IMG/VR virus record: IMGVR_UViG_3300045988_116799
Location: 13,506-77,505 of that record
Length of the DNA: 64,000 bases
Strand: one strand, 5' to 3'
Source: a virus
The notes under the pieces are model-generated. The model was given only the letters and a program-made list of their open reading frames with translations, made no database searches and was not told the DNA's origin. Position numbers and translations under genes: made by a program. Shown piece after piece: positions 3,711 through 49,550 of the stretch; position 1 is the first letter of the stretch; each line of letters starts with the position of its first letter.

Positions 3711-4304
3711 TTAAACACTCATTTCCAGCATCTTTGGATAGCCTGCGGTATAATCATACCCAAGTACCTCCTCAACCGTGCTCATTTCCGCTACCGCCTT
3801 CTTGTGCGCAGCCGTAACGTTGAAGCACTCAAGGGCATACATCTCCAGTGCCGAGAGCAGCTGTATCGCCTTGTCGCACTCCACCACCAGCTTCACATCG
3901 CCCAGCCACAGCGTCGTTGTAGCCTGTCCCATGGCCTTCGCAATGGTCGTCGAGTTCATCAGTCCTACACGCGTAGCCTTGTCGAGCCACACACGCTGTC
4001 CGTTGAGGATAAAGCCGTTGACGGCAGAAGACGTGTCATGCTTCTCAATCTCCGCAAGCACCATCTTCTGTGCGGCAGCAGTAAGAGCTGCCTCCGAAGT
4101 CATGCCGCCAGTCTCCAGGCGCACACCGTCATACACCCACACCTTGCGTTCCACCACAGCCCACATGTCTTTCAAGTCAGAACTAAAAGTTTCCGGACGT
4201 TCTATTTGCGTCTTCTCCTGACCGTTGATAAGCAGCAACACAACACCATCGCCAACAGTCAATCGTGGCTGTGCCTCGCTAAAATAATATTTCTCCATAA
4301 TCAA
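3711..4304 (-). CDS. Tail-fibre-associated protein (DUF4376-like C-terminus)
   Basis: 197-aa ORF; LSALEMYALECFNVTAAHK..YDYTAGYP resembles the DUF4376-type domain seen next to phage fibre genes; recalled similarity, not searched. Confidence 0.4.
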   Translation of the reverse strand: MIMEKYYFSEAQPRLTVGDGVVLLLINGQEKTQIERPETFSSDLKDMWAVVERKVWVYDGVRLETGGMTSEAALTAAAQKMVLAEIEKHDTSSAVNGFILNGQRVWLDKATRVGLMNSTTIAKAMGQATTTLWLGDVKLVVECDKAIQLLSALEMYALECFNVTAAHKKAVAEMSTVEEVLGYDYTAGYPKMLEMSV

Positions 4305-4331: not shown

Positions 4332-5717
4332 TCAGCATTCGATATACTCCATCTGATTAGTCGAGCCTTCAAAGATATATCCGCACTCGTCCACAATCCT
4401 CACGTCCTCCAACGGCAGCAAGGTCTTCTTGCCATATTCCTTCTCTGCTTCCACCATCCACGCCACGATACCCATCATGCCACCATGCACCTCTCTGGCT
4501 ATTGTCTTGCCCGTCAGCTCACCATCAGCAGTCACCTCCGGCATACCGATAAGCATCTTTATCCAATTAGGTTCGCCCGTTTTCTCGCTCTTGCGTATCT
4601 CGTAGTCGAAGACAGTGAACGCCTGTCCGCTACGTGCCAACTCCAGTGGCTTTATATTCGGAGCGTCCATCTTGCGGTCTATGCGTATCTTCTTTGTCAG
4701 TTCTCGTAGCTTCATATCTTTCTCAATTTTCACCATCTCTCCGAATCCGTCAGTATGACGCATCAGTCCGAAGTAGCTGCCCCACGAATTATCGTTATTG
4801 CACATTCTCGCTCTCAATAGCGTGTCTTTGCGTATAAGGCAATAGCCCTTGTTCGAGTCCGTCACGCTCTTGTCGTTGTTGCGTATCACCCTATAACCGC
4901 AGAAGTCAATCCCTCGCTTGTCGTTGATGTCGGTAATCCTTGTATCGCCACGCTTCGCCCTCATCTTCAGCTCATACCACCAGTACTGCCTTATCCTCCA
5001 CTTCATCCGTTGCGCTTCCTCCCTTGTTCGGCAAGCCACCATGCAATTATCTGCATAGCACAATCGCCATTCAGTGTTTCGGCACAGCCACTCATGGAAT
5101 CTCAGCATCAGTATATGGTGAGCAAGCGGACTCGTCGGTGTGCCTACAGGCAGTTGCCCGTCAACAAAGCACAACTCCACGGCAAAGTCTATCAGCCACT
5201 TGTCACCAATAAGGTATTTCAGCTCCTTGCGCAGCACGCTCGGCTTCACGTGCATATAGCATTTTCGTTGATCGGCAGTCACTACCCAGTCCATTTCGCG
5301 CAGATCGTAAAACAGGTGCTTCACTCTTGGAAGAACATAGTTGCTTTTCAGCTCCTTGTGCTTTGCCGACGGAGTAATACCGCACCCTTCCTTGCAGTTA
5401 AGCGACACCAACGGGTCGCGTCTGCGGTATATCGGCTCCAACTTGTTCTTCAGCAGATGTTCATACACTAAAGTTCTGAACGTAGGCGCGTCGATATGCC
5501 TCACCTTCTTGTTGTTGTTCACCTTGGTCAGCTTCCAGTACTTGATGTCCTCATGCCAGCTTCCATCTTTGAGATGTTGTTCAATACTTGCGCATAGCCC
5601 TTTTACATCCTTCAATGCCTCCGCCACCTCTGGGCGTTTCTTTCTGCCCTTAGCGGCACTCTCCACTGCTCTGAGGTAGTCGTCAGCAACGAAGGGTATG
5701 TAGTTGGGTCTATGCAC
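4332..5717 (-). CDS. DGR reverse transcriptase
   Basis: 461-aa ORF with a GTG start. RT motifs: TADQRKCYMHV (A), GQLPVGTPTSPLAHHILM (B), RLCYADNCMVA (C), DFCGYRV (E). Lies 226 nt downstream of the TR on the same strand. Confidence 0.9.
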   Translation of the reverse strand: MHRPNYIPFVADDYLRAVESAAKGRKKRPEVAEALKDVKGLCASIEQHLKDGSWHEDIKYWKLTKVNNNKKVRHIDAPTFRTLVYEHLLKNKLEPIYRRRDPLVSLNCKEGCGITPSAKHKELKSNYVLPRVKHLFYDLREMDWVVTADQRKCYMHVKPSVLRKELKYLIGDKWLIDFAVELCFVDGQLPVGTPTSPLAHHILMLRFHEWLCRNTEWRLCYADNCMVACRTREEAQRMKWRIRQYWWYELKMRAKRGDTRITDINDKRGIDFCGYRVIRNNDKSVTDSNKGYCLIRKDTLLRARMCNNDNSWGSYFGLMRHTDGFGEMVKIEKDMKLRELTKKIRIDRKMDAPNIKPLELARSGQAFTVFDYEIRKSEKTGEPNWIKMLIGMPEVTADGELTGKTIAREVHGGMMGIVAWMVEAEKEYGKKTLLPLEDVRIVDECGYIFEGSTNQMEYIEC

Positions 5718-5943
5718 GTTAATAATATGTTTTGTGCGGATTGCTCCGTTGTTAATAATCAGTGTCGGGCTAAAAAGTTGACGGAACTGTCTGCCCGTCA
5801 GAATGTCTCTCGGTCACGTTCGCCGCATCACGTACAGCCATCGTGCTACGCTCACATCCCTTGTCTTTGATATTTTCTGCTTCTCCTGAGCGAGAGTGGT
5901 GTTCCCGTGTTATTGGTTCTGCATCATTTATGATGCCCGACGT

Positions 5944-6051
5944 TGGGCAGAACCGCCATTATTCACGTTCGTATTAGCAGCCGAGTTGTTCGCATTCAGA
6001 TACCGAGGCGAACAATTCGCATTATTCGCATTGCCACGAAAGCGCACGGCT
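5944..6051 (-). repeat. DGR template repeat (TR)
   Basis: 108-nt gap-free alignment to 6310-6417; all 12 mismatches are plus-strand T in the TR (A on the transcribed minus strand). Confidence 0.9.
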
Positions 6052-6238
6052 CGGAGACACCAACCTCTTTAGCCATCATCTATATGGATAGCGTCACCTC
6101 TCATGCAGGCTTCAGAGGCTTCGGCCCTCATGCCGAGCTTGTTCTGGTTTTGAGGAAATATTTTGTCTTGATTCATTTTATTCTATCTTTTAAACCACTA
6201 TAAAGTTACTAATTTTGTTTCTGATTGCCAAAGACATG

Positions 6239-6255
6239 GCGCGGTTGCACCGCGC
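6239..6255 (-). promoter_or_regulatory. GC-rich hairpin downstream of the VR (candidate DGR target-recognition structure)
   Basis: GCGCGGT tgc ACCGCGC: 7-bp stem, 3-nt loop, ~36 nt past the target-gene stop; no U-tract follows on the minus strand. Confidence 0.5.
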
Positions 6256-6290
6256 TGCACAACGTTGCACTAAGTTGCACCCGGCTGCGC

Positions 6291-9167
6291 CTATTGCACG
6301 ATGCGACACTGGGCAGAACCGCCATAAAACACGTGCGGAATAGCAGCCGAGTGGTTCGCATTCAGAAACCGAGGCGAACAATACGCATGACTCGCATCGC
6401 CACGAAAGCGCACGGCTATGCGCACGCGCTGGTTGAGAGTAGAACTCCAGTACGGAAATGCCCACGAGTAGAAGCATTGCCAACTGCTAAGATTTCCTCC
6501 ATCGGCAATCTTGTATGGGATATACCCAAGTCTATTCTTACAGTAACCGTCCGACAAGATAGGAGAACCGAAAGTACCAATCTTACCATACGTAGACTCG
6601 AAGCCGAATGTGCCAAGATTGTTCTTGCTGACACCAGACTCATTCACCCACTTTGACTGGTTGGGTTCAAGATAGAAATCTATGTAGTTCTTTAACAGCT
6701 GCTCGGCATTGTAGCTGCCGTTGGTCTGCACCTTGTTAGTGCCCACCATCTCACAGCCGCCTCCCCAATAAGCAAAGACATCACCACTGACGTTCATGCC
6801 GTGCATGAGACTCATTCTAAGACTTAGCTCAAGGTCGTATGTAGCAAGCGTGTTAGCGTCTTTGTAGCCCTTACAAGTGCCAATCTTCTTGCGATACACC
6901 TTACAGTTCATCACTCCGTCAGCCAAGCCCTTTACGCCCGTTATGTTCTTATAGCGGTACGTTACGCCATACGCCTCATACTCGGTGTTCTCAGCAATTC
7001 CGAACTCTGCTGCCCACGATGCTGCCATCTGGCTCTCCATGCACTGCTCCTTTGAACGATATAAATTCACGAACCACGAAAAGTTATTCTTTTCCAACTT
7101 TTCGTTATGTCCAAATGGTGTGCTATCGCCAAATCCGCGATATGTCCATTCTTCCGTACCCTGTTCCTTGCATCGCACACCGCCATTGTCGAGCCATGTA
7201 TTCTCCGAGTTGCAAGCGTCATTGCTTGATATGCCCGAACCAAACAAATTATTGTCGTGCAAGTACTTTGTTCCATACAGCAGCTCCATACACAGTATAA
7301 AGGTGTTGACACCATGAAAACCTCCTTCGGCAAAGGGCAGTGGCGCATTGGTGTCAGCATTGTTGGCACGAGCCTTTTGCATGTTGCTCACCTGAGTCAT
7401 ATCCGATATACGAGGATATGTTCTACCATCGTTTACGTACATCGAACACATATTCTCGCCTGCTCCGCTCGGTCCGTTGGTGGTGTTTGTGTCACCCACG
7501 GCATAGACGTAGAAGAAGTTGCGTGTCTTGTTGCCTACCGTAGTAACAGGACAAGGAGACAGAGCCGTTCCAAGCAGAGGGTATCTGCCAGTATCAATGC
7601 CATCATAGCGCACCTGACGCTTGAAGATGCCCGTCAACACCTTACCGCTATCGCCAGTCTGACGGTCTACTGGATATAGGGTGTCGTAGCGACCGATCAT
7701 CACCGAATACTTTGTCTCTGTGGTCTCCCAAGGCAACAGCTGACGCACCTTGTTACCCTCTCCGTCGTACAAGTCTACCAAACCAAGCGAGTTGTACACC
7801 TCTGTTGCATCGTAAGGATGTGCGCCAGCCTTATCTGTCACAACAACACCATTTTTCAGCGTCAATGGAGTTGTGTGCTCGGCATCGGTATAGAGTTGTA
7901 CATCACACGCAGCACGCATCGCCTCCGTAATACCCACGGTAGGCGCAAACGCACCCGACACAAAGCGGAAGTGATTATTGTCCATCAACTGACCTACAGG
8001 GTGTGTAGCCTCGCCAGTGTTGTCGGTTTGGTCGATAAGGTACGGATGCCAATCGCCCAAGAACTCCTTGTTTCCCTTGCAGTTCTTGAAGTGAGGGTCG
8101 CCCGTCACCTCGTCGTTCTCGCCTACATAGTAATCCTTAACGTTCTCCTTCAGTTCGGCAATGTCAGCAGCGTTCTGTGCCACAGCCTCCTTAGTCTCCT
8201 TCATGTCCACTACAAGCTGATTCACCTTCTCGCCCTCACCGACTTTCACACTCTTGCTTTCACCCTCGCGATTGGTAACAGTCAGCAATCCGTCGTCGGC
8301 AAGAGTGGCATTGACGTTCTCGGCTGCTCTCACCGCATCCACTGTCGAGGCCGCACCCTTGTTGGCAGCATCAGCAGCAGCGTTGGCAGTGTCAGCAGCC
8401 GACTGTGCAGACATCACAGCCTGCTGGCTGGCATCAGCACGCTCCTGCTCAGCCGATACTCGCAGCTTCTCGTTAGCCATACGTCGCGCCTCCGCTTCCG
8501 CTCTCAGCTTCTCGTCGTTGCCTCGTGTGTTCTCAGCCTCCGTGCGGTTCGTCTCGTTGCTCGCACGCTGCGTCTCAGCCTCCGTGCGCTGAGTTTCAGC
8601 CTCTGCACGCTCATGCTCAGCCTTCACGCGCTCCTGCTCATTAGCTGTTGCCGTATTGTTAATAGCCACAGCCTTATCCACCTCCGCCTTAGCCTTACGC
8701 AGCGTGTCGGTAAGCTGTAGGTTGAGAGCTTCGCCCTGCTCAGCAGCCTCCTGCGCACGACTCGCCTGAGCCTGTGCCGATGCCGATGCCGAAGTCGCAG
8801 CCGTAGCCGCTGCATCCACCTTGTCCAAAGCAGCCTGTAGCCCAGCCGTAGCTGTAGTCACGCTCTCCGCAGCCTTAGCCGCTTCCGCTGCCTTGTCGTT
8901 AGCAGTTTTAGCAGCAGCGTTGGCAGCCGTAGCAGCCTCCTGCGCACTCTGAGCACCGTCGTGAGCGCTCTTAGCGTCCACGAGCAGGCTCCACCACTCG
9001 TCCTCACCCACAGGCTCGTGCCCGATGTTGCCGTCCGCCTTGCTCAGATAGGTGTTGCCGCCGTGCGTCACAAGCTGTAGCTTACAGTAAGTCACACTCG
9101 CGTCGTATGCCCCTTTAGGGTGCATGCCGACACTACCCATGTCAATGTACTTCTTTTCCATATTCAC
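6291..9167 (-). CDS. DGR target protein: receptor-binding tail fibre
   Basis: 958-aa ORF (GTG at 9167; the ATG at 9161 is a more likely start). Long Ala/Glu-rich coiled-coil N-terminal part, globular C-terminal part ending in the VR. Confidence 0.85.
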   Translation of the reverse strand: MNMEKKYIDMGSVGMHPKGAYDASVTYCKLQLVTHGGNTYLSKADGNIGHEPVGEDEWWSLLVDAKSAHDGAQSAQEAATAANAAAKTANDKAAEAAKAAESVTTATAGLQAALDKVDAAATAATSASASAQAQASRAQEAAEQGEALNLQLTDTLRKAKAEVDKAVAINNTATANEQERVKAEHERAEAETQRTEAETQRASNETNRTEAENTRGNDEKLRAEAEARRMANEKLRVSAEQERADASQQAVMSAQSAADTANAAADAANKGAASTVDAVRAAENVNATLADDGLLTVTNREGESKSVKVGEGEKVNQLVVDMKETKEAVAQNAADIAELKENVKDYYVGENDEVTGDPHFKNCKGNKEFLGDWHPYLIDQTDNTGEATHPVGQLMDNNHFRFVSGAFAPTVGITEAMRAACDVQLYTDAEHTTPLTLKNGVVVTDKAGAHPYDATEVYNSLGLVDLYDGEGNKVRQLLPWETTETKYSVMIGRYDTLYPVDRQTGDSGKVLTGIFKRQVRYDGIDTGRYPLLGTALSPCPVTTVGNKTRNFFYVYAVGDTNTTNGPSGAGENMCSMYVNDGRTYPRISDMTQVSNMQKARANNADTNAPLPFAEGGFHGVNTFILCMELLYGTKYLHDNNLFGSGISSNDACNSENTWLDNGGVRCKEQGTEEWTYRGFGDSTPFGHNEKLEKNNFSWFVNLYRSKEQCMESQMAASWAAEFGIAENTEYEAYGVTYRYKNITGVKGLADGVMNCKVYRKKIGTCKGYKDANTLATYDLELSLRMSLMHGMNVSGDVFAYWGGGCEMVGTNKVQTNGSYNAEQLLKNYIDFYLEPNQSKWVNESGVSKNNLGTFGFESTYGKIGTFGSPILSDGYCKNRLGYIPYKIADGGNLSSWQCFYSWAFPYWSSTLNQRVRIAVRFRGDASHAYCSPRFLNANHSAAIPHVFYGGSAQCRIVQ
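6310..6417 (-). repeat. DGR variable repeat (VR) in the C-terminus of the tail-fibre gene
   Basis: Matches the TR except at TR adenines; encodes ...RFRGDASHAYCSPRFLNANHSAAIPHVFYGGSAQ, ending about five codons before the stop. Confidence 0.9.
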
Positions 9168-16048: not shown

Positions 16049-19000
16049 TTAATAATTTTTCTTCATTAAGTTATACATGTTCGCAATATCCTCACGTATC
16101 AGTATGATAGGAGCTGTATTTTTTACTATTTGTTGTAACTGCCCAAGACCTTCATATTGAATGTCACGCATTTCGGTCATATTTACAGCCATATTTTCAG
16201 CAAAGCTGCGCATTACACTTATATCTGCACATATCTGCGCTCTTGTCTCATTTCCTTGTTCAACTGCTATTTGCATAGCATAGCCAATTCCAATCAACGT
16301 GCTTGCTTGGTCAGCTGTTATTGCTTCGATAGCTTTGTTTGTAGCTGACTGGGAAGACACTTCTGCGTACCCAGTTATCTTAGCTGCTTCGTCACGATAT
16401 TGCATTCCTTTCTGAACAATGTCGTTATACTTCTTGTTAAGTTGAGATATTTCGTCAGAAGTAAGCCCGTTTTCTGCCATTTTTGCCCATTCATCATAGA
16501 AACTTTGCAATTCATTGTCAAGCAAATCTCCGATTTTAGCATCCATGACGGCATCAAAAAGGTAACCACTGAAATCATCAGCGAAATCCTTGGCACTCTT
16601 GCTCATATCTTTCAACGTGTTCTTGAAGTTACTTTTCAAATCATCGAATGACATGTTTGTAAGTCGTCCTGTCATTTGTTCATCAAGTTTCTTTTGAGCA
16701 TTTTCGTAGTTCTTGATGTAACTCAATACCATATCTGGTATCTCGCCAGACTTTCCGTTTTTACCTCCTTCCTTACGATATTCGTTCAATATTTTGTTCA
16801 AAGTCTCACCTTGGTCATAATCTCGGATTTTTGCCATTTCTTCAGCGGAAAGGTGTAGGAAGTCCCAACTTGACTTTACTGTTCTACCAAGTAGTGATGA
16901 AACTGTCGACATCGCTGTCTTCCATCCTTTGTTGTCCTCAACTGACTTGTTTAACGAAACTCTCCATCTTCCATGTTTCTCTGCTTCATAGTACATCTTG
17001 TTCTGCTCGTTAGCTTCGCTCTGTGCTGTTAGCTTTTTAGCATCTTCGTATGCAGCCTGTGCCTTGTATAGAGAACTATTCTGTATCGTATCGTTAAGAT
17101 TATCCAAGCATTGGGCAAGGACGTTGTTCTTCTGCGTCAATGCATCAATGCTATTTTGCATTTTCGCTGTGTTGTCACCGCCTATGCCGAGAACAGAGGT
17201 AAATCCTTGTATTGCCGATACTCCCTTTGTAAGAGCACCGACATAATTCCCTGTTGCAAAATCAGCTGCTGCTCCCGAAGCATCGTTGAATGCTGATAAA
17301 CCTTCAGAAGCTTTCTTTGCAACACCGCTCATTCCGAGATTTTCAAACAGTCCTGGTAGCTCGTCGATTCCCTTCTTAGTGATAAATTCCTGCGCATTAG
17401 TGAACCAATCAGCTACGCTCTGCGCTGATGAGCGTTTCGCTCCGTCCTCTTTGTTCTTAGCTTCTGCTGTAGCTTTTGCTGTCTTTTTTCTCGCTTCTGC
17501 CAACTTCCCTTCGAGTACTGCAAGTTTGGAAAGAAGTGTAGACATTTCATTGTATTCCTTGGTTGACTTATCTATACCGAACTTGTCAAGGTTGGATTGT
17601 ATGTCTGCCGTATCATCACCGATAGCACGTACCCCAAGGTCTGTAGCTTTGTAGTTTGCTGCTCTCAATGCCTCTTCATACTGTTTTTCAATATCTGCTT
17701 CCTTGGATTTTGCAGCGTTGAGTGCTTCTTGTGCTTCCTTAGCTTCATTGATGCGACGTATATGTTCTTGTTGCTTCTCACCAACAAAATCAAAAAGACC
17801 TCCTTGTTTGCTTATCTCAGAGTTGATGTCATTTATTTTTTCCTGTACTTTTGCTATATCCTCAATGTCTGTCAGCTTGCCACTTTTTAGCAACGTTTGA
17901 AGCTGATTGCGCAATGATTCAAGATATTTTTTAGTATGCGAAGATAAGTCGGAAAAAACATTCTCCCAATCTATCTGTTCGAAGATGTTTTCTTTGTTAA
18001 TACTACGCAGTTCGTTGTCTCTTTGTTGTTCAAGAGAAGCCTTTTGATAAGCATTTTCTGCTTTTGCAATCTTGTCTGCATACTCTTCTGTTATAGCAAG
18101 TTTCTTATCTTGTATGTCGCCGTATTCTTTCAAGAAGGCATACAATCCCGACTTCTCGCTTTCTATTAAGTCGTTGTTTAGCTTCTCTATCTTTTTACTT
18201 CTATCTTGACTTGCAAGTGTTTTCGACTCTTCAATAGCTTTTGATTGCGCATCCGTTAACGTTGCTCCTTTTCCTGCTTCTTTGTTCTTTTTACGGAATT
18301 CGTCTTCTTGTTTTTCAATTTCAGCAAGACGCTTCTTATAGTCGTTGTCTATTTCTTTTAACTTCTTTTCTGTACCTTCTTGCATAAGTGCAATGGTCGC
18401 GTCGATGTTCTTCTGTTCAAGTTCCAGTAACATCTTATTTAATTCTTCTTGCGCCTTCTTTTGCTTTTCTACTGTCTTGTTTTTTTCTTGCGTTCCTTCT
18501 ATACCTCCGAGCTTAACATCAGTATTGATAGTTTTCTGTTGCATCGCATAAGTACTTCTTCGCTGTCTTGATAAGAAATCATCCAAAATATCAGTATTGA
18601 ATTCTGAATATTTATTACCAGACTTTTTCAGTACATTTCTGACAACATTTTCGCCAGCATTGGCGAGTGCTACAGAACTTGCATTTTTATAACGACGTTT
18701 GGCTGCATTTACACCTGCTTCGTACCATTTCTGTAGTCTGTCTCTTTGCTTCCTGTATAGCTCGAGGTTTTCTTTTTTATTACTTTGATAAGATTCGTTT
18801 GCGCCCATGGCTACGACTGCACTTTCAGGGAAAGCTCCCATTCCAGATGTTGCCGAATCGACATATTTCGCACTTTTTCTTGAGCCTTTATGATTCTTGT
18901 CGTAATTTTTAAGATAATTGAGTTCGTCCGCAGTTCGTGAAGCTCCTCCAATTATCCTATTAAAGAAACGCAAGATGTTTGTCAATACAGGCGTTAAGTT

Positions 19001-21574
19001 GGCATTTAATGATGTCAGAAAACCGTTCCATGCGTTGTTTAACTTCTTAAGGTTTACGTCTGCACGTGTGTTTATGTCAGCTAACAGTTCTTCTTTGGTT
19101 GCTGCGTTACCAATTGTCTTTGTGTATTTTTCTATTGCTTCGGCATTTTTGATAAAATACATAGCCGTAGCTCTATTACGAGCCATGAACTTTTCTCCGA
19201 CATTTTCACCTCTATCATATGCTTCTTTAAGGTTTTTAAGTGCCGTAACCATGCCAACCATCGAAGGGTTGTATTCTTTCTGCAATTTTGACATGCTCAT
19301 CAAAAGCATAGAAAATTTTGACGCAGCCTTAGAAGCACCACCGAACTGATTGCTTGAGAATCCTATCAGTGACGACATTTCCTTGAAACTTATTCCATAA
19401 AGAGACGCGGTAGAACCAGCGGACTTTATGGCTTCTGCCATTTCTCCGAATGACGATGTTGTATTGCGAGAAGCCGTAGCAATAACGTTAGACATTTTCG
19501 TAGCTTCATCTGCCGTTAAATGGTATTCGCCAGATATTTCAGCAATGCTTTTTGCCGACTCCGCAGATGTCTTGCCTGTCAAAGCTCCAAATTCATTAGC
19601 TGCTTTAATCATTCGCGTCAAGGCTTCGGGAGAATCATTCAGACCATCCCACACCTTTACAAACTGAGTAGCTGATTGCGCCATATCCACACAGCTTTTT
19701 GAAGTCGTTGCGGATAATGCGAGAATATTCTGTCGGAGGTCTTTTATCTTGTCGGAATCCATATAGTGGTCAAGCGGTTGTAATGACACACGGAAAGCTT
19801 CTGAAGCCTTAGACATATCATACAATCCTTTGCCTACAGCAGCTATTGCTGCTCCCCAAGCTCCGATTTTTCCAACAAACCCAAACAACGCAGAAAAATC
19901 ACCTTTCATCAATCCGGCAAAAGAACTCTTCAATCCCCCGAATATTCCCTTTACTTTCTTTCCTGCTGCTTCGGCTTCTTTTCCTATGTTTTGCGTTTCT
20001 TTCGCACTCTTTTTTGCTTCTTCGGTAACATCTTTGTAAGATGCACCCATTTCGCGCAATTTTTCTTTACCTTGGATTATTTCACGGGTTATTTCATCTT
20101 GTTTCTGTTTGTTTTCATTTGCCTTGTCACTATTCTTTCCATAAACCTGCGCAATTTCCGAATACTCGTTTTTAAGTATCTTCAATTGGTTTATATCTTC
20201 TTGTATTACGGTTGCAATGTCGTTCTTTGACATTCCGCTCCACATATCGGTGGATGCTGTTTTTGTTTCTTCTGTAGCAGTGCGCAACTTTTCTAACTGT
20301 GCCGTAACTTCGGCAATTTGCTGTTGCTTTTCCTTGATTGCGTCACCTTCGGCAAAATAGTCTTTGATTGTTGTAAATGGGTTGTCCCCTTTGCGCATAG
20401 TAGAAATGAAGTCACCGCCCCATCCGTTGGCGTGGTGGGCTTGCATCTGCTCCAGTTGCTCGTTTAGCTTCTTTAATTCGTCTTCTTTAGCTCGTATTGC
20501 ATCAAGTGTTTTGTTTGTGCTTTCGGTTTCTCGCTTTTGCTCGGTTTCTGCTTTTTGCGCTGTTGAAGTATATGCGTCAGAAAGTCGCTGTAAGCTACTT
20601 GCAATTTCGTTTGCTTCAGTTTTAAGTTTGTTGGCACGTTCCAGAAGGGCATCGGCAGCACGTGCGTTCATTTCGTTGTTGTTATCCACGATGTTGCCAT
20701 CAACAATTTTAAATGTAGTTGCCGCTTCTCTTGCCTTCTTCTCTTTTTCTAACAAATCCGTTTGCTCGGACATTAATTGGCGATAACGTGCTTCTGCGCT
20801 TTCTTTGGCTTTAATGTATTCCTCTTCACTTGTCTTGCCTTGCAATATCCGTTCCGTAAGTTTGTCAAGTGCTGCCGCTTCTGCGTTTGCCGTTTCAGTT
20901 CGTTGTTGGTTTGCTTCTACCGCTTTCTGGTATGCTTGTGTATTATCTTTTACCGCCTGTGTTTCTGTGCCTATTTTCTCGGCATTAACACCGTGCGCCA
21001 CACTTTCTGTGCCTACGGCTGCTGCCGCCCCAGCGTGAACAGTCGCATTTGCGCCAGTTGCTGCCGTTGATATAGAACGACCTGCATTCAAGGTATCAAT
21101 AGCAGCATTGAGAGTACCAACATACTGCTGAGTACTGCCAAATGTACCCAACATTGATAAATATTCGTTGTTAAGTTTCTCTACTAAACTCTGTTGAGAC
21201 TTCAATTGTTCATTAATCTCATTCCATTTCTGAGAACCTTCGGTTGTTTCCGATAGTCTTTTTTGGAGCTTATCAATGGTTGCCTCCGCAGTCTGAGCCT
21301 CCGATGCAAGTTTCTTTAATGCTTCGGGCGTATCGGCAAGTGATTTGTTGATTTCTTCGATACCTTGCTTCAAGGTATGCACGGATTGCTTTGTCTTTTC
21401 GCTGTCAGATGCAGAACTTTGTGCAATATCATTCAATGCCTTAGTCATCTTAGAGCTGACTTCATCCGTTTTTACCCCGAGTAAATTAAGGTCATTTATC
21501 AGCTTATCTAATGACTGCTGTATGTCGGAAATATCCATTTGTCCGCTTATTCCAAGTATCTCGTCTGCTGCCAT
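16049..21574 (-). CDS. Tail tape measure protein
   Basis: 1841-aa ORF, highly helical/coiled-coil. Its core TSSFGEMAEAIKSAGSTASLYGISFKEMSSLIGF resembles the TP901-type TMP core. Canonical position after the chaperones. Confidence 0.9.
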   Translation of the reverse strand: MAADEILGISGQMDISDIQQSLDKLINDLNLLGVKTDEVSSKMTKALNDIAQSSASDSEKTKQSVHTLKQGIEEINKSLADTPEALKKLASEAQTAEATIDKLQKRLSETTEGSQKWNEINEQLKSQQSLVEKLNNEYLSMLGTFGSTQQYVGTLNAAIDTLNAGRSISTAATGANATVHAGAAAAVGTESVAHGVNAEKIGTETQAVKDNTQAYQKAVEANQQRTETANAEAAALDKLTERILQGKTSEEEYIKAKESAEARYRQLMSEQTDLLEKEKKAREAATTFKIVDGNIVDNNNEMNARAADALLERANKLKTEANEIASSLQRLSDAYTSTAQKAETEQKRETESTNKTLDAIRAKEDELKKLNEQLEQMQAHHANGWGGDFISTMRKGDNPFTTIKDYFAEGDAIKEKQQQIAEVTAQLEKLRTATEETKTASTDMWSGMSKNDIATVIQEDINQLKILKNEYSEIAQVYGKNSDKANENKQKQDEITREIIQGKEKLREMGASYKDVTEEAKKSAKETQNIGKEAEAAGKKVKGIFGGLKSSFAGLMKGDFSALFGFVGKIGAWGAAIAAVGKGLYDMSKASEAFRVSLQPLDHYMDSDKIKDLRQNILALSATTSKSCVDMAQSATQFVKVWDGLNDSPEALTRMIKAANEFGALTGKTSAESAKSIAEISGEYHLTADEATKMSNVIATASRNTTSSFGEMAEAIKSAGSTASLYGISFKEMSSLIGFSSNQFGGASKAASKFSMLLMSMSKLQKEYNPSMVGMVTALKNLKEAYDRGENVGEKFMARNRATAMYFIKNAEAIEKYTKTIGNAATKEELLADINTRADVNLKKLNNAWNGFLTSLNANLTPVLTNILRFFNRIIGGASRTADELNYLKNYDKNHKGSRKSAKYVDSATSGMGAFPESAVVAMGANESYQSNKKENLELYRKQRDRLQKWYEAGVNAAKRRYKNASSVALANAGENVVRNVLKKSGNKYSEFNTDILDDFLSRQRRSTYAMQQKTINTDVKLGGIEGTQEKNKTVEKQKKAQEELNKMLLELEQKNIDATIALMQEGTEKKLKEIDNDYKKRLAEIEKQEDEFRKKNKEAGKGATLTDAQSKAIEESKTLASQDRSKKIEKLNNDLIESEKSGLYAFLKEYGDIQDKKLAITEEYADKIAKAENAYQKASLEQQRDNELRSINKENIFEQIDWENVFSDLSSHTKKYLESLRNQLQTLLKSGKLTDIEDIAKVQEKINDINSEISKQGGLFDFVGEKQQEHIRRINEAKEAQEALNAAKSKEADIEKQYEEALRAANYKATDLGVRAIGDDTADIQSNLDKFGIDKSTKEYNEMSTLLSKLAVLEGKLAEARKKTAKATAEAKNKEDGAKRSSAQSVADWFTNAQEFITKKGIDELPGLFENLGMSGVAKKASEGLSAFNDASGAAADFATGNYVGALTKGVSAIQGFTSVLGIGGDNTAKMQNSIDALTQKNNVLAQCLDNLNDTIQNSSLYKAQAAYEDAKKLTAQSEANEQNKMYYEAEKHGRWRVSLNKSVEDNKGWKTAMSTVSSLLGRTVKSSWDFLHLSAEEMAKIRDYDQGETLNKILNEYRKEGGKNGKSGEIPDMVLSYIKNYENAQKKLDEQMTGRLTNMSFDDLKSNFKNTLKDMSKSAKDFADDFSGYLFDAVMDAKIGDLLDNELQSFYDEWAKMAENGLTSDEISQLNKKYNDIVQKGMQYRDEAAKITGYAEVSSQSATNKAIEAITADQASTLIGIGYAMQIAVEQGNETRAQICADISVMRSFAENMAVNMTEMRDIQYEGLGQLQQIVKNTAPIILIREDIANMYNLMKKNY

Positions 21575-24159: not shown

Positions 24160-25251
24160 TTACTTGGTTGTCTTGAGAATAAAGAGGTCGTTCAAGCCGT
24201 TAAAAACAGGCTGCGCCCACATATCGTAGTTTACATGATAGCCTGTATTGTCACGCCAATAACCTACAAGGTTGTCGTCGTGAGAAGAATATGAGACGTT
24301 CGGAATTGGGTCTACCAACTCCAATGGGTCGGAGATCTTCATTATTGCTACCGTTTCAGTACACTGTGCTACAACACGGTCGTCAACGATTAGATTGACT
24401 GTTGAGCCGTCTGCAAGAGTTACGAACTGGTTTTCGTCAATCTGTATTGCGGGCAGCAGAACAGAGCGCAGATAAGTGTTTACTTGGTCTACTGTAAGCA
24501 TCGGCACGGCAGGGTTAATCTGTACAGTGCCAAGGTTAAGCTTGAACGTGTCCTTGATTTCCTTCGCCTTACACATCTTGTAGAATGTGTTTTCAGACAT
24601 ACGGAGCTTCATAATCTTGCGACCCTTCTTCGTTGCCTCGTCCTTAAGCATCATGATGTCGGCAATTGGCGTTGCTGTCTCTGTACCCCAGTTGTTGGTA
24701 ACGGAAAGCTCCTTGATGCCGAGGTCGAAGGTGTAGGACACGTTTGCCTTTGCGTTGTTGGTGCGAGAGACAGTTTGTTTGCCCGTGTATAATCCTTCAT
24801 AATAAAGCATATCAAGACGTTTGTGTGGTGCAATAACAGCACGCTCAAACGGACGGAAAGAAAACTCTATAAGTTTGTCGTAATGTGCATTGAGTTGTTC
24901 CTGCGTATAATCACGGCCTTCAGCGTCACGATAACGACCTTCAAGCTGATGCAGCTGGTCAAGATAATTGTTGTCAAGCTCCCACTCATCACCATAGCGA
25001 CCAATAGAGCCAGTCAACTGACCAAAGTCAGGCATATGATGTACAGGCTTCTCAGCGTTCTGGGCGATAACAGAACCAACCATGGCAGCAGTGTATTCTG
25101 CGAGATTAGCCTGATAAACCTTTGCAGCACAATATTCTACCTCTTTAATCTCGTTCTTCCACAAAGCTTTATAAGTGGAGGTCTTCATGCTTTTGTCAAT
25201 ATAGCTCTGAAAAGATTTTGGGTCTAATAGCTGTTTTAGAATACTATTCAT
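24160..25251 (-). CDS. Major capsid protein (lambda gpE-like by size and position)
   Basis: 363-aa ORF following the scaffold and decoration-like genes, matching the lambda Nu3-D-E order. Confidence 0.7.
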   Translation of the reverse strand: MNSILKQLLDPKSFQSYIDKSMKTSTYKALWKNEIKEVEYCAAKVYQANLAEYTAAMVGSVIAQNAEKPVHHMPDFGQLTGSIGRYGDEWELDNNYLDQLHQLEGRYRDAEGRDYTQEQLNAHYDKLIEFSFRPFERAVIAPHKRLDMLYYEGLYTGKQTVSRTNNAKANVSYTFDLGIKELSVTNNWGTETATPIADIMMLKDEATKKGRKIMKLRMSENTFYKMCKAKEIKDTFKLNLGTVQINPAVPMLTVDQVNTYLRSVLLPAIQIDENQFVTLADGSTVNLIVDDRVVAQCTETVAIMKISDPLELVDPIPNVSYSSHDDNLVGYWRDNTGYHVNYDMWAQPVFNGLNDLFILKTTK

Positions 25252-45512: not shown

Positions 45513-45797
45513 ATGACAGCGGAAGACATCTTGAAATATTGTCATTTCTATAAAGGTGAGGTGCTAATGCCTGATTCTTTAGAAGAAACAAATGAAGGTC
45601 AGCTATGGCTGGCTGAAAAAACAGTATGCGAGGAATTCGTAAATGACATTCATGTTGACACAGCACAAAAAGACGTTGCTTCTATTGTTGCTGCCTATGT
45701 TGGGAAATGGAATCCTTATGAATTGTCGGATGTTATGAACACGTACCTTACAAAGGTTCCAGAGGTTGAAACCTTCATAAGGCAAGTGTATTTATAG
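45513..45797 (+). CDS. Hypothetical protein
   Basis: 94-aa ORF; a TAAATTTG -7 box lies at 45479-45486; converges on the MuF-like gene with a 6-nt overlap. Confidence 0.45.
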   Translation: MTAEDILKYCHFYKGEVLMPDSLEETNEGQLWLAEKTVCEEFVNDIHVDTAQKDVASIVAAYVGKWNPYELSDVMNTYLTKVPEVETFIRQVYL

Positions 45798-48700
45798 TTC
45801 AAATAAGGCGTTTCCTTTGATATAATAAATGGATGCGCCTTTCTTTTTAAATTCCTTGGCAATCTTTAAAATTTTATCGTGAGAACCATCTAAAATATCG
45901 TATGGATAAGTTATGGATTCAATACAATCAATTGTAAGCTGCCCGTGGTATTGTAGTTCTAGATACGAAGATATATGTTCTTTTTTAAATTCTACGAGGT
46001 TTGTTGTTTGTATGTCTATTGATGTTGGTGTATTATAAAAATCATCAAACGAGCACGCTTTGGGGTCGCTAACGAGAGACGGCTGATATCTAACCCCTAA
46101 AGAATCTCCTGCCGTCCACGTTGCGACAACTTTGTCTTTCTTAAAACGGACTTCCACGTTACCATAACTTCTTGCTGTGTTGTTTTGCATTGAGCGCAGT
46201 ATATTGTGGTCAAGAAGGTTTCCGTATTTCTCATATTCTTTTCTGTCTAATTGCTGAACTGCAAGGTCTTTTCGCGGAAGGCCAAACATCTTATGGGCGG
46301 CACTTAAACGTGAATGTGTAGGACTAATTTTTCCTGTTGTGGACGTAGAACCTAAATAACCTCCGGATGAGCCAGTCTCGAAAGTGTTCATAAATTTTGA
46401 ATTTAAGACCTTTTCGAGTATGGAATCTTTTATATTCATTCCTAAATCATGCTCACTGAACACTTTTTGCATCAGTAATTCTATCTCATTCTTATGCGTT
46501 TTTGCTGTGACACCATAATAACGGCTGTTCTTCTCGTATTCGCTTATTGCATCTTCAAGATATTCAAGAGTCTTTGGAAATTTCGTACCAAGGCGTTTTT
46601 TCAAGTCTTCTATTGTTTCGTGATTAACTGCTGTTTCTTTTAATAGCTTTGGCGATTTCAATTTGTTTTTTAATAGTTGCTGATATTTTCTATTAATCTC
46701 CTGCGCTTTGCTTTTTGCCAAATCCAAGTCAACATTTCTCCGTGTCAGTATATGATTTATCTCTGATGCCAGTTCTTTGATTTTTCTACTTTTTGATAGA
46801 GTAGCATATGCGAGTGCATCGCTGACACTGTCGGCAACGGCTTTAATGTCAATCTTTCTCTCTACTATACGTAATTCTTTCTTATACGCATCTTGAGCAA
46901 CTTTCCATGTATCGTATTTTTTATGTTCTTCAACCCATTTAATCTCAGATTCCAGAAAGCGTTTCCTTGGAAGTAATTCAACGCTTTCTCTTGCCAGTCT
47001 TGCTTCAATAGCTTTGTTAATTGCAATAGCTTCTGACATTGAGTAATTGCGAGCGACAAGGATAGGATTTTCAAGGCGTGACAGAGATAAAATCTTTTTC
47101 CCTTGTTCTTTCAATGCTTTGGCTTCTTCATAAATATTTACATAATCTCTTGCTTCAAGAGCTGTCTTTAATGCCGATGTGTCCACATCTTTAATGCCAT
47201 TCATATAGCGTAAGACGCTTTCGCCATAATGAACGTAAGCTCTTTCTGTTGCAAGTCGTCTTTGTCGTTGTTCGGCTCTTCTTTTGATTGATTCTGCGTC
47301 TCGCTTTGCGTGTCGTGCCTTAGCAATCTCTTGTATGGCATCACGGCGTGACATTGCGTCAGCACCCATTTGTTTGCGCTGTGTTGCATCCAAAAACTTC
47401 ACCCAATAACTTTTATTGTTTGCCAAGTGCCACGCCAACTTGTCCCGTTTATAAGCGTCCACGATTTTGTTTGCATTATCCTCAATGTACCGTTTATATT
47501 GGTCGGGCATATCTTTAATACGGTTAGGAGATACGTAATTGGACATATCTTCTCCGTTGAACAGCCGTTTGTAGAATTGCTTGCGTTCTTCGCCACTTAT
47601 CATTATAGGGTCACTGGTACACATGCAGTTTGAGCCCCAAAAGCATTTGCCGTCTTTCTGTATATACATGATGTGATTGTTCTCAAGTGTAACGTCGTAC
47701 ACAAAGCCGATGTATTCAACTTTCTCCTTGTTAAATACAGTGGCGGTTGCTGAATCGCATTCACTTATTCTGTAACAGTCATATCGCTGCTTTATAACTG
47801 TACCATCTTTTTTGACAGTATTTTTAGGTGACATTATTCTATATGACGGTCGATGTCCTACTTTTAACAATAGCAAACCTATTTCAGCTGCCATTTGAGG
47901 AGAAGATGTAAAATACATTCTTTCTCCATGATTTGGAGTACATACATGACCTCTGTTGCCCATAAAAGGACGTGGCTTCTTGATATGTCCGTCGCACACA
48001 ATAAAAGCATCAAGAAATATTTGGATTTGTCTCTTTGATGCATTTAAAATTTCTTGTGGTATATATTTATAATGTGCAGTTCCGTATTTTAAAAGCTCTT
48101 GACCAAAAGCACGGTGATATAAAACAATGGTGCTTTTATAAACGTGTGGCGTAAAACCCATCTTCTTGATACAAGTTTGCATACGTTTCCAAGCAGGCTG
48201 TCCTTTTTCTTGCGACAAAACAATACCGTAGTCATGTTGCATACTACCGTCTGCAAGGTAATACCCCATAAATTCACAATACACATCAAAAGGTATATTT
48301 TTGTCGCCAAACATAATGTTCGTGCGGTCTTTGGCGGTATTGACAGCGGAACGATAGAAAGCCCCCATACTTGGCTTGTATTCCGTAGCGTTGCATTTTT
48401 TTATTTCGTGAGCACCGCTTTTGCTGATATACACCATTTGATGTTCTGGAGTAACAAGACATTCCAATGAACGGTTAAAAAAGTGTATAAGTTCTCCATT
48501 GTAAGGGTATTTTTGTACTCCTACAATATTTGTTTCTTCTATTTCACGTGTCTGTGGATTTAAAGAATATACAACATCCTGAGTCGTAACATCTTTAAAT
48601 TCTTTCCATCCTTTTGTAGTCAGAACCTGAGTACCTTCGGCATAACATTGAGGGTGCCAGCCATTCCACACAAAGCCTTTAGGATAGTACCCTTCAAGCT

Positions 48701-49550
48701 CGTCGCAAATGTCAGCATCTTCGTCTGGGTCGTGCTGTGGAGATACGTGTATATGCTGCCCTATGACGAAAGGCTCGTTTGCCCAACGCTCGTTCCTTGC
48801 TGTGTGGTATGCTGCATTGATTTCGGTACGAGCCACACGTAAAGCATTCTTTCTTGCGGAGCGATATACGCCCAGCCCTACATGTTCGAGCGGTTCTTCT
48901 ACAAAGCGTACACGTCCGTCAATAATGCGCTTCCTGCGCCAAGTGACAATATCTTTCTTCTGTCCGTTCTTTAACACTTTTACTGTGTGGTAACGACGAT
49001 ACATCATATCCGGGTTATTCAAATATTGTCGTATTCTTCTACCCACTTCCTCTGCGGATTCACCCTTTCCCAGTCCGTCGGCTATCACGTTAGACATCGC
49101 CATCTCGAACTCTGCTTTTGTTTGCTGACAGTAGTTCCATACGGACCGCGCGAGGTTCAAGCCTATCTTAGAATTGAGTCTATTGGCTATGAACGTCGCA
49201 GCAGCCGTTTTTCTTGCGGTTTCTAATGCTTTGTCTGTTAGCACAGAGAATTGCCCTATTGTATCATTGTCGTGCGCATACGCAAGAGAAACGCCGCTTG
49301 TTATGCCGCTTTTGTAGCATAACATGCTATTTTGGAAATAGTCGTTAAATATGTCTTCAAGTCGAGCTTTAAGCAAAGGAAAATTGTCAAAATTGAAAAG
49401 AGCGTCATTTTCGAGCACGTCTTCGCTATAGCCAAGAGCGAGCAGCTTCCTGACATAACTTCCGTACAACATGCCAAGTCGGCGGTTGTATTCGGCGAAT
49501 AGCCTGTTTAAATCTTCCTTTCGCTTTTTAGCTGTAAGTTTTTCTGCCAT
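45792..49550 (-). CDS. Head morphogenesis protein (MuF/SPP1 gp7-like) with an intein and a ~600-aa C-terminal extension
   Basis: 1252 aa, directly downstream of the portal gene. The N-terminal ~300 aa are gp7/MuF-like. The WHPQ|C...N|CMC junction restores an HPxCxC-type motif once residues 302-641 are removed. Confidence 0.75.
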   Translation of the reverse strand: MAEKLTAKKRKEDLNRLFAEYNRRLGMLYGSYVRKLLALGYSEDVLENDALFNFDNFPLLKARLEDIFNDYFQNSMLCYKSGITSGVSLAYAHDNDTIGQFSVLTDKALETARKTAAATFIANRLNSKIGLNLARSVWNYCQQTKAEFEMAMSNVIADGLGKGESAEEVGRRIRQYLNNPDMMYRRYHTVKVLKNGQKKDIVTWRRKRIIDGRVRFVEEPLEHVGLGVYRSARKNALRVARTEINAAYHTARNERWANEPFVIGQHIHVSPQHDPDEDADICDELEGYYPKGFVWNGWHPQCYAEGTQVLTTKGWKEFKDVTTQDVVYSLNPQTREIEETNIVGVQKYPYNGELIHFFNRSLECLVTPEHQMVYISKSGAHEIKKCNATEYKPSMGAFYRSAVNTAKDRTNIMFGDKNIPFDVYCEFMGYYLADGSMQHDYGIVLSQEKGQPAWKRMQTCIKKMGFTPHVYKSTIVLYHRAFGQELLKYGTAHYKYIPQEILNASKRQIQIFLDAFIVCDGHIKKPRPFMGNRGHVCTPNHGERMYFTSSPQMAAEIGLLLLKVGHRPSYRIMSPKNTVKKDGTVIKQRYDCYRISECDSATATVFNKEKVEYIGFVYDVTLENNHIMYIQKDGKCFWGSNCMCTSDPIMISGEERKQFYKRLFNGEDMSNYVSPNRIKDMPDQYKRYIEDNANKIVDAYKRDKLAWHLANNKSYWVKFLDATQRKQMGADAMSRRDAIQEIAKARHAKRDAESIKRRAEQRQRRLATERAYVHYGESVLRYMNGIKDVDTSALKTALEARDYVNIYEEAKALKEQGKKILSLSRLENPILVARNYSMSEAIAINKAIEARLARESVELLPRKRFLESEIKWVEEHKKYDTWKVAQDAYKKELRIVERKIDIKAVADSVSDALAYATLSKSRKIKELASEINHILTRRNVDLDLAKSKAQEINRKYQQLLKNKLKSPKLLKETAVNHETIEDLKKRLGTKFPKTLEYLEDAISEYEKNSRYYGVTAKTHKNEIELLMQKVFSEHDLGMNIKDSILEKVLNSKFMNTFETGSSGGYLGSTSTTGKISPTHSRLSAAHKMFGLPRKDLAVQQLDRKEYEKYGNLLDHNILRSMQNNTARSYGNVEVRFKKDKVVATWTAGDSLGVRYQPSLVSDPKACSFDDFYNTPTSIDIQTTNLVEFKKEHISSYLELQYHGQLTIDCIESITYPYDILDGSHDKILKIAKEFKKKGASIYYIKGNALFEL
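47628..48647 (-). mobile_element. Intein with LAGLIDADG homing endonuclease (340 aa, residues 302-641)
   Basis: Starts CYAEGTQVLTTKGW (block A). LAGLIDADG-like FMGYYLADGS and FLDAFIVCDGH. Block F/G FVYDVTLENNHIMYI...CFWGSN followed by +1 Cys. Confidence 0.8.

Follow-up and report, generated by a model that had tools for sequence, protein, structure and literature searches.

How does a phage keep re-randomising the end of its tail fibre when the reverse transcriptase (RT) encoded beside the fibre gene lacks two signature motifs, and when no gene for the accessory protein Avd accompanies it? This question is raised by a 64,000-nt stretch of viral DNA, here called the window (IMG/VR virus record IMGVR_UViG_3300045988_116799, positions 13,506 to 77,505), in which an earlier reading of the sequence had predicted a diversity-generating retroelement (DGR) at window positions 4332-9167. 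Here we report that this element is very probably a functional DGR of an uncultivated siphovirus-like phage of gut Bacteroidales. Coordinates are window positions throughout, and the features of the cassette are all read on the minus strand.

Two repeats that differ only at adenines

The element is built around one long direct repeat returned by the repeat finder (5938-6051 and 6304-6417; 114 nt, 88% identity). One copy holds the template repeat (TR, 5944-6051), which is non-coding and invariant, and the other holds the variable repeat (VR, 6310-6417), the mutagenised part, which forms codons 918-952 of the target gene. Base-by-base comparison on the minus strand confirmed that the two align over 108 nt without a gap, as had been predicted, at an offset of 366 nt. 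The 12 predicted mismatches were also recovered, and all of them fall at TR adenines (six A>T, four A>C and two A>G). Substitutions therefore occupy 12/26 TR adenines as against 0/82 other bases (one-sided Fisher p = 3.5e-9), with no non-adenine mismatch anywhere in the mutagenised stretch. No third VR-like copy was found on either strand of the window, even with all A positions masked.

Homology between the two copies continues for a further 6 nt in the 3' direction, to 5938/6304, with two more differences (A>G and C>T; CCCAACGTCG in TR, CCCAGTGTCG in VR) that are present in every closely related locus. These two differences are not mutagenesis; they are the distinction between an initiation of mutagenic homing (IMH) sequence at the VR and its counterpart, IMH*, at the TR. 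In the IMH-like 3' end of VR (6304-6323), GGCGGTTCTGCCCA leads into GTGTCG; TR and VR share the first 14 nt, and the last 6 nt are specific to VR, while in TR the shared GGCGGTTCTGCCCA continues as ACGTCG. The IMH*-like 3' end of TR, GGCGGTTCTGCCCAACGTCG, occupies 5938-5957 and contains GGTTCTGC at 5947-5954, a segment that is taken up again below.

Read in the frame of VR, TR comprises 11 AAY codons, one TAT and one ACG among its adenine-containing codons, in agreement with the AAT- and AAC-like codons noticed in the original prediction. Its adenines lie at the first codon position in 12 cases, at the second in 13 and at the third in one, and no stop codon can be reached by substitution of any of them. 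This layout is canonical for the template of a DGR and makes possible ~15^11 x 16 (roughly 1e14) protein variants, none of them with a stop.

The target gene (6291-9167) is an open reading frame (ORF) of 958 codons for a tail-fibre-like protein, and VR lies at its C-terminus, ending five codons before the stop, where the original prediction had placed it. The protein begins with a short N-terminal domain, continues as an Ala-rich coiled-coil to about residue 340 and finishes C-terminally in a globular region of ~670 aa with VR at its end. Its gene belongs to the tail module, adjoining the tape-measure gene and a gene for an 1867-aa tail protein, and its N-terminus gives a weak match to the solved short tail fibre 8ke9 (E = 5.8e-4); from this position and this match we infer that the protein is a tail fibre. 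Residues 285-956 are 37-63% identical to the targets of other loci. Sequence searches for the fold in Pfam, NCBIfam and the PDB, with the single sequence and with a 102-sequence profile, returned no Pfam domain, no lectin match and only coiled-coil low-complexity noise.

Diversification in related loci

The search for relatives of the RT returned 381 in the database. We compared the locus with 15 loci from IMG/VR, four metagenomic contigs, the GenBank phage crAssE-Sib and 24 loci from Bacteroidales genomes or metagenome-assembled genomes (MAGs); related loci carry L numbers where they have to be told apart. Because the closest RT cluster holds 1353 member sequences, we regard this RT lineage as very abundant in gut metagenomes. 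Its distant members (41-49% identity) come from human, ruminant and horse guts, in genomes and MAGs of Bacteroides, Parabacteroides, Prevotellaceae and further, mainly Bacteroidales, taxa.

A TR/VR pair is present just upstream of the RT gene in 38 related loci, 13 of which are close IMG/VR loci, and the mismatches are almost all at A. The repeats are 107-118 nt long, except in L011, where they measure 78 nt. At the non-A positions where the TRs of different lineages differ, every VR matches the TR version of its own locus, and TR information must therefore keep overwriting VR. A search of the 1.7 kb preceding the RT gave no TR/VR pair in L027, L034, L035, L037 and L038, the first of which ends at a contig edge. 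As a separate observation, L042 (Caecibacteroides pullorum AN421) has seven non-adenine TR/VR mismatches and may be a decaying cassette.

Closely related loci show the same process at a finer scale. TR is 100% identical in the window and in L001-L003, and the VRs of these four loci all differ. Between L001 and L002 there is no difference in the 600 nt upstream of VR, yet their VRs differ at 13/27 A sites and at 1/87 other sites. In 119 homologues of the target that are at least 91% identical, all 13 A-containing TR codons are hypervariable, with 4-17 residue types each, and no hypervariable column occurs elsewhere; mean entropy is 2.84 bits at these 13 codons as against 0.19 in the rest of the last 120 residues. 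The confinement of variation to TR-adenine codons is the population pattern that the original prediction had proposed to look for. The DGR has been very recently active in this phage lineage, and since the alignment and the population comparison both came out in its favour, we take the element for a real, recently active DGR.

The reverse transcriptase

The distance from the end of TR to the GTG start of a co-oriented ORF of 461 aa (4332-5717) is 226 nt, as had been predicted, and the RT core of that ORF (aa 1-329; 4731-5717) matches Pfam RVT_1. Motif A includes D149 (within 5256-5273), motif 4 reads VGTPTSP, of the GxxxSP form (5127-5147), and motif C reads YADN (5046-5057). A profile of the RT family has the Bordetella RT (bRT, 8ub7) as its best PDB match (E = 6e-10), with group II RTs just behind (2.9e-9), and profile positions 9-327 align with bRT residues 13-322 of 328, that is, end to end. 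The AlphaFold (AF2) model of the RT has a predicted local distance difference test score (pLDDT) of 90, and its Foldseek match to bRT reaches a template modelling (TM) score of 0.76 normalised to the target; the GsI-IIC RT was also matched. Matches to NCBIfam models fall far under the cut-off, both for group II (54.9 vs 300) and for retrons (18.9 vs 235).

In motif 4, LP(I/V)GTPTSP is invariant in alignments of 21 and of 103 RT sequences, the window RT having LPVGTPTSP. The GxxxSP form is shared with group II intron RTs, whereas GxxxSQ is regarded as the signature of DGR RTs. The YxDD box, for its part, varies at its fourth position: among 120 family members it reads YADD in 86, YADN in 21, YADS in five and YADM in three, with K and F at that position in one member each and no YAD match in three. 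FADD and VADD have also been found in the family. The first Asp of the box (D223 in the window RT) does not vary among the 21 aligned sequences, and in the alignment of 103 its conservation is at least 90%. YADN is kept in RTs 59-92% identical to the window's, with their ORFs intact, and it arises independently in L018, L031, L033 and L044, all of them with A-only mismatches. Because loci with YADN show such clean A-only diversification, YADN is compatible with function.

An added C-terminal domain on the RT and the absence of Avd

Between VR and TR the window has only a 35-aa ORF (6069-6176), which has no Pfam match, and in the four metagenomic contigs and crAssE-Sib no gene is called in this interval. 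We considered the 35-aa ORF as a possible accessory gene and rejected it, since it lacks a Pfam match and part of its DNA is a conserved hairpin (see below). About 29% of the DGRs in the set of Wu et al. 2018 have no accessory gene, and an Avd-independent mechanism was inferred there (PMC5758913). As DGRs without accessory genes are known, the absence of Avd is a known variant and does not exclude the element from membership among DGRs.

The RT carries an extra domain at its C-terminus (aa 330-461 plus the stop; 4332-4730) that is without counterpart in bRT. Modelled alone (AF2), this 132-aa domain has a pLDDT of 90.9, and its elements follow in the order helix, three long strands, helix, three short strands; a conserved CGYIFxGSTNQ ends it. 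It matches no Pfam family. Foldseek found nothing for it in the PDB at E <= 0.001, the best E being 0.05 with weak OB/SSB-like hints, and in BFVD at the same threshold it found other phage RTs only. In an exhaustive search of 1.84e9 (1.84 billion) representatives the domain was present in 77 clusters only, at the C-terminus of proteins of ~390-610 aa, which are RT-sized as judged by length alone, or in short fragments. The order helix-strand-strand-strand-helix had led us to suspect a domain like Avd or like a double-stranded RNA-binding domain; we rejected this, as the domain has no PDB match and is acidic (isoelectric point, pI, 5.4), unlike Avd, which is basic. That the domain substitutes for Avd is put forward here as a hypothesis only.

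RNA elements around the template repeat

The elements described in this section emerged from comparative analysis only; a single-sequence fold of the TR and spacer RNA was not significant (z = -1.5). An anchored alignment of the spacer between TR and RT across 21 diverse loci, evaluated with RNAalifold and pair counting, brought out a conserved core of the spacer RNA (5863-5891), in which a hairpin of 4 bp closed by an NGRA tetraloop (5879-5891) is joined through an A-rich linker to the motif AAGAC (5863-5867). In the hairpin, 84/84 cells of the alignment are paired, compensatory changes occur in 4/4 pairs and the covariation score is reached by 0/500 shuffles. AAGAC does not vary even among loci whose RTs are 41-50% identical to the window's.

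Upstream of this core we identified a 'Stop-like' long-range duplex, whose 5' strand, TGGTGTCTCCG (6052-6062), abuts the 5' end of TR and whose 3' strand is CGGGAACACCA (5897-5907). Most relatives have a duplex of 10-15 bp at this fixed position, with sequences that are unrelated between loci. One partner is the ~12 nt abutting the TR 5' end; the other, the 3' strand, lies directly 5' of the tetraloop hairpin and ends 22-28 nt before AAGAC across the family. The longest helix has a median score of 10.8 as against 5.1 in shuffles, and in 14/23 loci the observed score is reached by 0/200 shuffles.

Two further elements are more restricted in their distribution. A hairpin, GCATCAT-AAA-TGATGC (5921-5936, within an element at 5915-5936), overlaps a primer-like strand, GCAGAACC (5915-5922), which is the exact complement of GGTTCTGC in TR (5947-5954) and sits 7 nt 5' of the 3' strand of the long-range duplex. 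Within the window's clade these 8 bp of complementarity are retained, and L016 retains them with the help of G-U pairs. On the other side of TR, and within the 35-aa ORF, lies a hairpin CGGC-ATGAGG-GCCG (6122-6135). It is found 55-83 nt before TR and is kept in the window's clade, in L019 and in L024, L025 and L042, with a compensatory TGGC..GCCA in L010; only some members of the family have it, and it may belong to the DGR RNA as a 5' element.

Cryo-electron microscopy of the Bordetella DGR ribonucleoprotein revealed a spacer strand, Sp, that primes in cis and an avd:Sp duplex that stops cDNA synthesis (bioRxiv 10.1101/2023.10.23.563531). The Bordetella RNA presents its elements in the same order as the RNA described here, with a strand complementary to the 3' part of TR, a duplex with the segment 5' of TR, a short tetraloop hairpin and unpaired adenines. 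By this analogy the elements flanking TR may be functionally equivalent to those of Bordetella, and we propose the long-range duplex as the counterpart of the avd:Sp 'cPRT Stop' duplex. Such an equivalence would explain why the homology of TR and VR begins precisely at the border of the long-range duplex. It would also leave the two fixed TR/VR differences uncopied, because they lie 3' of the proposed primer duplex.

Hairpins downstream of the variable repeat

An array of GCA-triloop hairpins (6239-6299), which we propose to be target-recognition hairpins, follows VR. In the window there are five GTGCAR units, four of them at 10-nt spacing, and the perfect hairpins are GGCGCAGCC (6283-6291) and GCGCGGTGCAACCGCGC (6239-6255). 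Perfect hairpins with a GCA loop occur in 39/39 related loci, with one to four of them (mean 3.0) in the 100 nt after VR, as against a rate of 0.05 after TR and of 0.03 per 105 nt of background, an enrichment of ~100-fold 3' of VR. The GCA loop is invariant while the stems vary in sequence, the closing pair being C:G or T:A, and the count of 117 GCA loops compares with 0-4 for each of six control triloop sequences. Folding the VR flank as DNA from the single sequence gave no significant result (z = 0.2).

Efficient homing in Bordetella and in other phage DGRs requires one hairpin 3' of VR, which has a GC-rich stem of 7-10 bp and a GRNA tetraloop (PMC3240598). Most simply, the GCA-triloop array would be this family's version of the Bordetella GRNA hairpin/cruciform signal.

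The surroundings of the hairpins hold other repeated or motif-like sequences. Between the VR hairpins and TR, tandem 8-nt TTAGGAR repeats are present ~60-110 nt after VR in L001, L002, L004, L007, L009, L011 and L013, and 7-nt AGTGAAG repeats in L006, L008 and L012; both are absent from the window. In this interval the window has TTTG-N20-TAACTTTA (6201-6232), an element that resembles the Bacteroides -33/-7 promoter consensus (TTTG ... TAnnTTTG) and that could, judging by this resemblance, drive the TR-RT transcript.

Weighing the alternatives

Several of our observations weigh against a functional DGR or against parts of the description given above. The RT has neither the GxxxSQ motif (SP is found in 117/120 family members, SS in three and SQ in none) nor a YxDD box, its own reading being YADN, and the second Asp of YxDD is regarded as catalytic in other RTs. 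No Avd or HRDC gene was found in the cassette or among the Pfam matches of 68 small ORFs of the window, and the Bordetella bRT is inactive without Avd. The evidence on variation is drawn from related contigs and protein homologues and is thus indirect for this phage's own population. In the window itself the long-range duplex has one C-A mismatch and only two of the GCA units make perfect hairpins, while the assignment of the primer duplex is weak beyond the window's clade. The C-type-lectin fold of the target, finally, is a prediction from 40% identity to crAssE-Sib's receptor-binding protein (RBP). The element had been announced as a complete DGR with the classic signature; the DGR stands, and both adjectives were overstated, given the missing Avd, GxxxSP and YADN.

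Could the cassette then be a fossil, a DGR that once diversified the fibre and is now dead through YADN, the VR differences being relics? The replacement of the canonical second Asp and the lack of an Avd gene would fit such a history, as would the occurrence in the family of decayed cassettes such as L042 with its seven non-A mismatches, and fragmented RTs have been reported in epsilon crAss-like phages (PMC11054128). YADN is, however, conserved in the intact RTs that are 59-92% identical to the window's and independent in four other loci (L018, L031, L033 and L044), in a family where the fourth position of the motif varies naturally among D, N, S, M, K and F. Where YADN loci share one TR, their VRs are still unlike each other, 13 A sites separate L001 from L002 beside the same 600-nt flank, and the window is free of non-A mismatches in the mutagenised stretch; we consequently give this explanation only a slim chance. 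Slimmer still is the chance that VR is diversified in trans, by another DGR of the host or of a co-infecting phage, with the adjacent RT in a defence or retron-like role. Remote targets are possible for DGRs (PMC5758913), and the RT does weakly match retron, group II and defence-RT models. Against this, the order target-VR-TR-RT is kept in ~39 loci of siphovirus-like, Mu-like and crAss-like genomes, a covarying structured RNA flanks TR beside the RT, TR and VR co-vary locus by locus, and no Rfam group II intron or retron RNA was found in the window. A third account, an ordinary duplication diverged by point mutation or recombination, with an A bias due to chance or composition, has in its favour only that a direct repeat 366 nt apart exists. 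It is the least credible of the three and is already refuted by the Fisher test in the window alone (p = 3.5e-9), by the same A bias arising independently in 38 other loci, and by variable positions that are exactly the A-containing codons in the 119 homologues.

A proposed mechanism

With a functional DGR as the preferred reading, the following sequence of events can be envisaged. An RNA of about 6135-5717 would be transcribed, carrying TR and the structured 220-nt spacer. The RT (4332-5717) would copy TR into cDNA, misincorporating opposite template adenines. By analogy with Bordetella, the cDNA may be primed in cis through pairing of the spacer strand GCAGAACC with GGTTCTGC in TR; copying would begin just 5' of this primer duplex, leaving the IMH*-specific bases uncopied, and would halt at the long-range duplex 6052-6062/5897-5907. 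The GCA-triloop hairpins 3' of VR may, by the same analogy, mark the DNA target. The cDNA would then replace VR at the 3' end of the target gene and re-randomise 13 codons (11 AAY, one TAT and one ACG), presumably altering receptor specificity.

A more far-reaching interpretation is that the RT family is an Avd-free DGR of one protein and one RNA, which tolerates loss of the second Asp (YADN/S/M) and uses the GCA hairpins as a distinct target code, the C-terminal domain and the conserved spacer RNA together replacing Avd in positioning the template:primer duplex. As a whole we hold this to be rather unlikely and offer it tentatively. If true, this natural RT lineage would be the first that has been shown to function with a substitution of the second Asp of YxDD.

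Genomic context and possible mobility of the cassette

The window represents an uncultivated siphovirus-like phage, with a tape-measure gene (16049-21574), a major head protein gene (24160-25251) and a portal gene (49553-51046), the portal sharing ~30-34% identity with its counterparts in Porphyromonas and Riemerella phages. No genome end is seen in the 64 kb, so the genome measures at least that much. With 4332-9167 and 22000-46000 as queries, megablast gave no match among GenBank phages, none of which is at least 85% identical; the phage is known from metagenomes only. Rfam and tRNA scans of the window returned nothing, with no Rfam family at gathering score.

In 2-kb bins, G+C content is 0.47-0.55 at ~2-14 kb, a region that holds the genes for a DUF4376 protein, the RT, the target and the 1867-aa tail protein; in the rest of the window it is mostly 0.37-0.47, with three bins at 0.33-0.36. 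The hosts of the cassette include siphovirus-like genomes (the window, L016, L018 and L019), a Mu-like genome (L017) and a crAss-like one (L020). Together, the raised G+C content at 2-14 kb and this range of hosts suggest that the tail-tip and DGR region is a mobile, horizontally exchanged module. In the relative L016, an integrase lies 5 kb from the RT; in the window no integrase family was among the Pfam matches of the 68 small ORFs scanned.

The DUF4376 protein (3711-4304; 197 aa, pI 4.95) is encoded directly 3' of the RT and has both Pfam and PHROG tail-fibre matches. Homologues of it directly follow the RT in 11/23 dereplicated loci, and are not found there in the Mu-like or crAss-like hosts. 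We considered it as a DGR accessory factor and rejected this role, because the Mu-like and crAss-like cassettes lack it and yet have A-only mismatches. It is for this reason more likely to be tail related, and it is probably a tail-fibre-related protein that is often linked to the cassette.

Other genes of the window show combinations of domains. A 1252-aa protein (45792-49550) has PHROG matches both to head-morphogenesis proteins (SPP1 gp7-like) and to a Bxa-type ADP-ribosyltransferase, and a 434-aa protein (54717-56021, minus strand) joins a ParB-like N-terminal part to a DNA methyltransferase. Antirepressor domains (ANT/KilAC and Bro-N) and several helix-turn-helix regulators are present among the small ORFs.

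Comparison with known DGRs

The DGR as such is a well-known system, and a DGR directed at a tail fibre is expected in phages of gut Bacteroidales. With the prototype, the mtd-avd-TR-brt cassette of Bordetella phage BPP-1, the window element shares the adenine-specific transfer from TR to VR at the C-terminus of a tail-fibre receptor-binding protein, the AAY codons, the IMH/IMH* distinction, a homologous RT core and a hairpin or hairpins 3' of VR with a loop of the G...A type. The two differ in several respects. BPP-1 has an Avd that is essential for bRT, whereas the window has none, and in BPP-1 the avd gene precedes TR, whereas here non-coding sequence does. The BPP-1 RT has GxxxSQ and YMDD, whereas the window RT has GxxxSP and YADN and is 133 aa longer, with its extra domain. 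BPP-1 also has one GRNA tetraloop hairpin (PMC3240598), whereas the window has several GCA triloop hairpins.

In gene content the element is like the Architecture A/Lineage 3 DGRs of Wu et al. 2018 (PMC5758913), which consist of TR and RT with an adjacent target and are without avd, HRDC, MSL or CH1. Hankyphage and Quimbyvirus (PMC6199706, PMC8008677) are, like the window phage, phages of gut Bacteroidales; both are abundant in human gut metagenomes, and their DGRs target C-terminal domains of structural proteins, reported to be of the C-type-lectin kind. Hankyphage has a small ORF described as Avd-like, of which there is none in the window, and Quimbyvirus has an RT split over three frames and two targets, whereas the window has a single target. 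No record of either phage was among the tblastn matches of the window RT.

As a natural and clearly active case of mutagenic retrohoming independent of Avd, the element bears on what is acknowledged to be an open mechanistic question (PMC5758913). Its candidate cis elements have now been mapped in a compact cassette, and the variation at a supposedly catalytic position of the RT is relevant to the engineering of DGR-based diversifiers. As far as the papers that we searched show, the variable fourth position of YxDD, the family-specific C-terminal domain of the RT, the GCA-triloop array and a conserved Bordetella-like RNA architecture in a system without Avd are all undescribed.

The closest described system is crAssE-Sib (OR575929; Viruses 2024), whose DGR has the same GxxxSP, a motif that its authors called unexpected and that, by their account, had not been seen before in known phage and bacterial DGRs (PMC11054128). 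The myDGR program misses the crAssE-Sib cassette unless this motif is changed in silico (PMC11054128), and because it fails through GxxxSP on a homologous element, it would probably miss the window element as well. Since a standard detector reportedly overlooks GxxxSP (PMC11054128) in a branch that is very abundant, censuses of DGRs may undercount it. A term search of the same paper finds no mention of Avd, of a C-terminal RT domain, of a hairpin array or of RNA architecture. In its AlphaFold model the crAssE-Sib RBP looks like TaqVP, a variable protein of a DGR with a C-type-lectin fold (PMC11054128).

In light of this likeness, the window element is a member of an atypical branch of DGRs that has been described only once, in 2024. 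By tblastn, the crAssE-Sib RT is 46% identical to the window RT over 99% of the query, C-terminal extension included, and the GenBank annotation gives the same order of target-VR/IMH-TR/IMH*-RT with no avd. The crAssE-Sib RBP is 40% identical to residues 285-956 of the window target over 685 aligned positions. In the crAssE-Sib cassette, too, GCA-triloop hairpins flank VR, and the AAGAC and hairpin motif of the spacer recurs. The crAssE-Sib cassette resides in a 151-kb crAss-like phage and encodes a YADD enzyme, whereas that of the window resides in a siphovirus-like phage of at least 64 kb, encodes YADN, is followed by a DUF4376 gene and acts on a target with a long coiled-coil N-terminal part, unlike that of crAssE-Sib.

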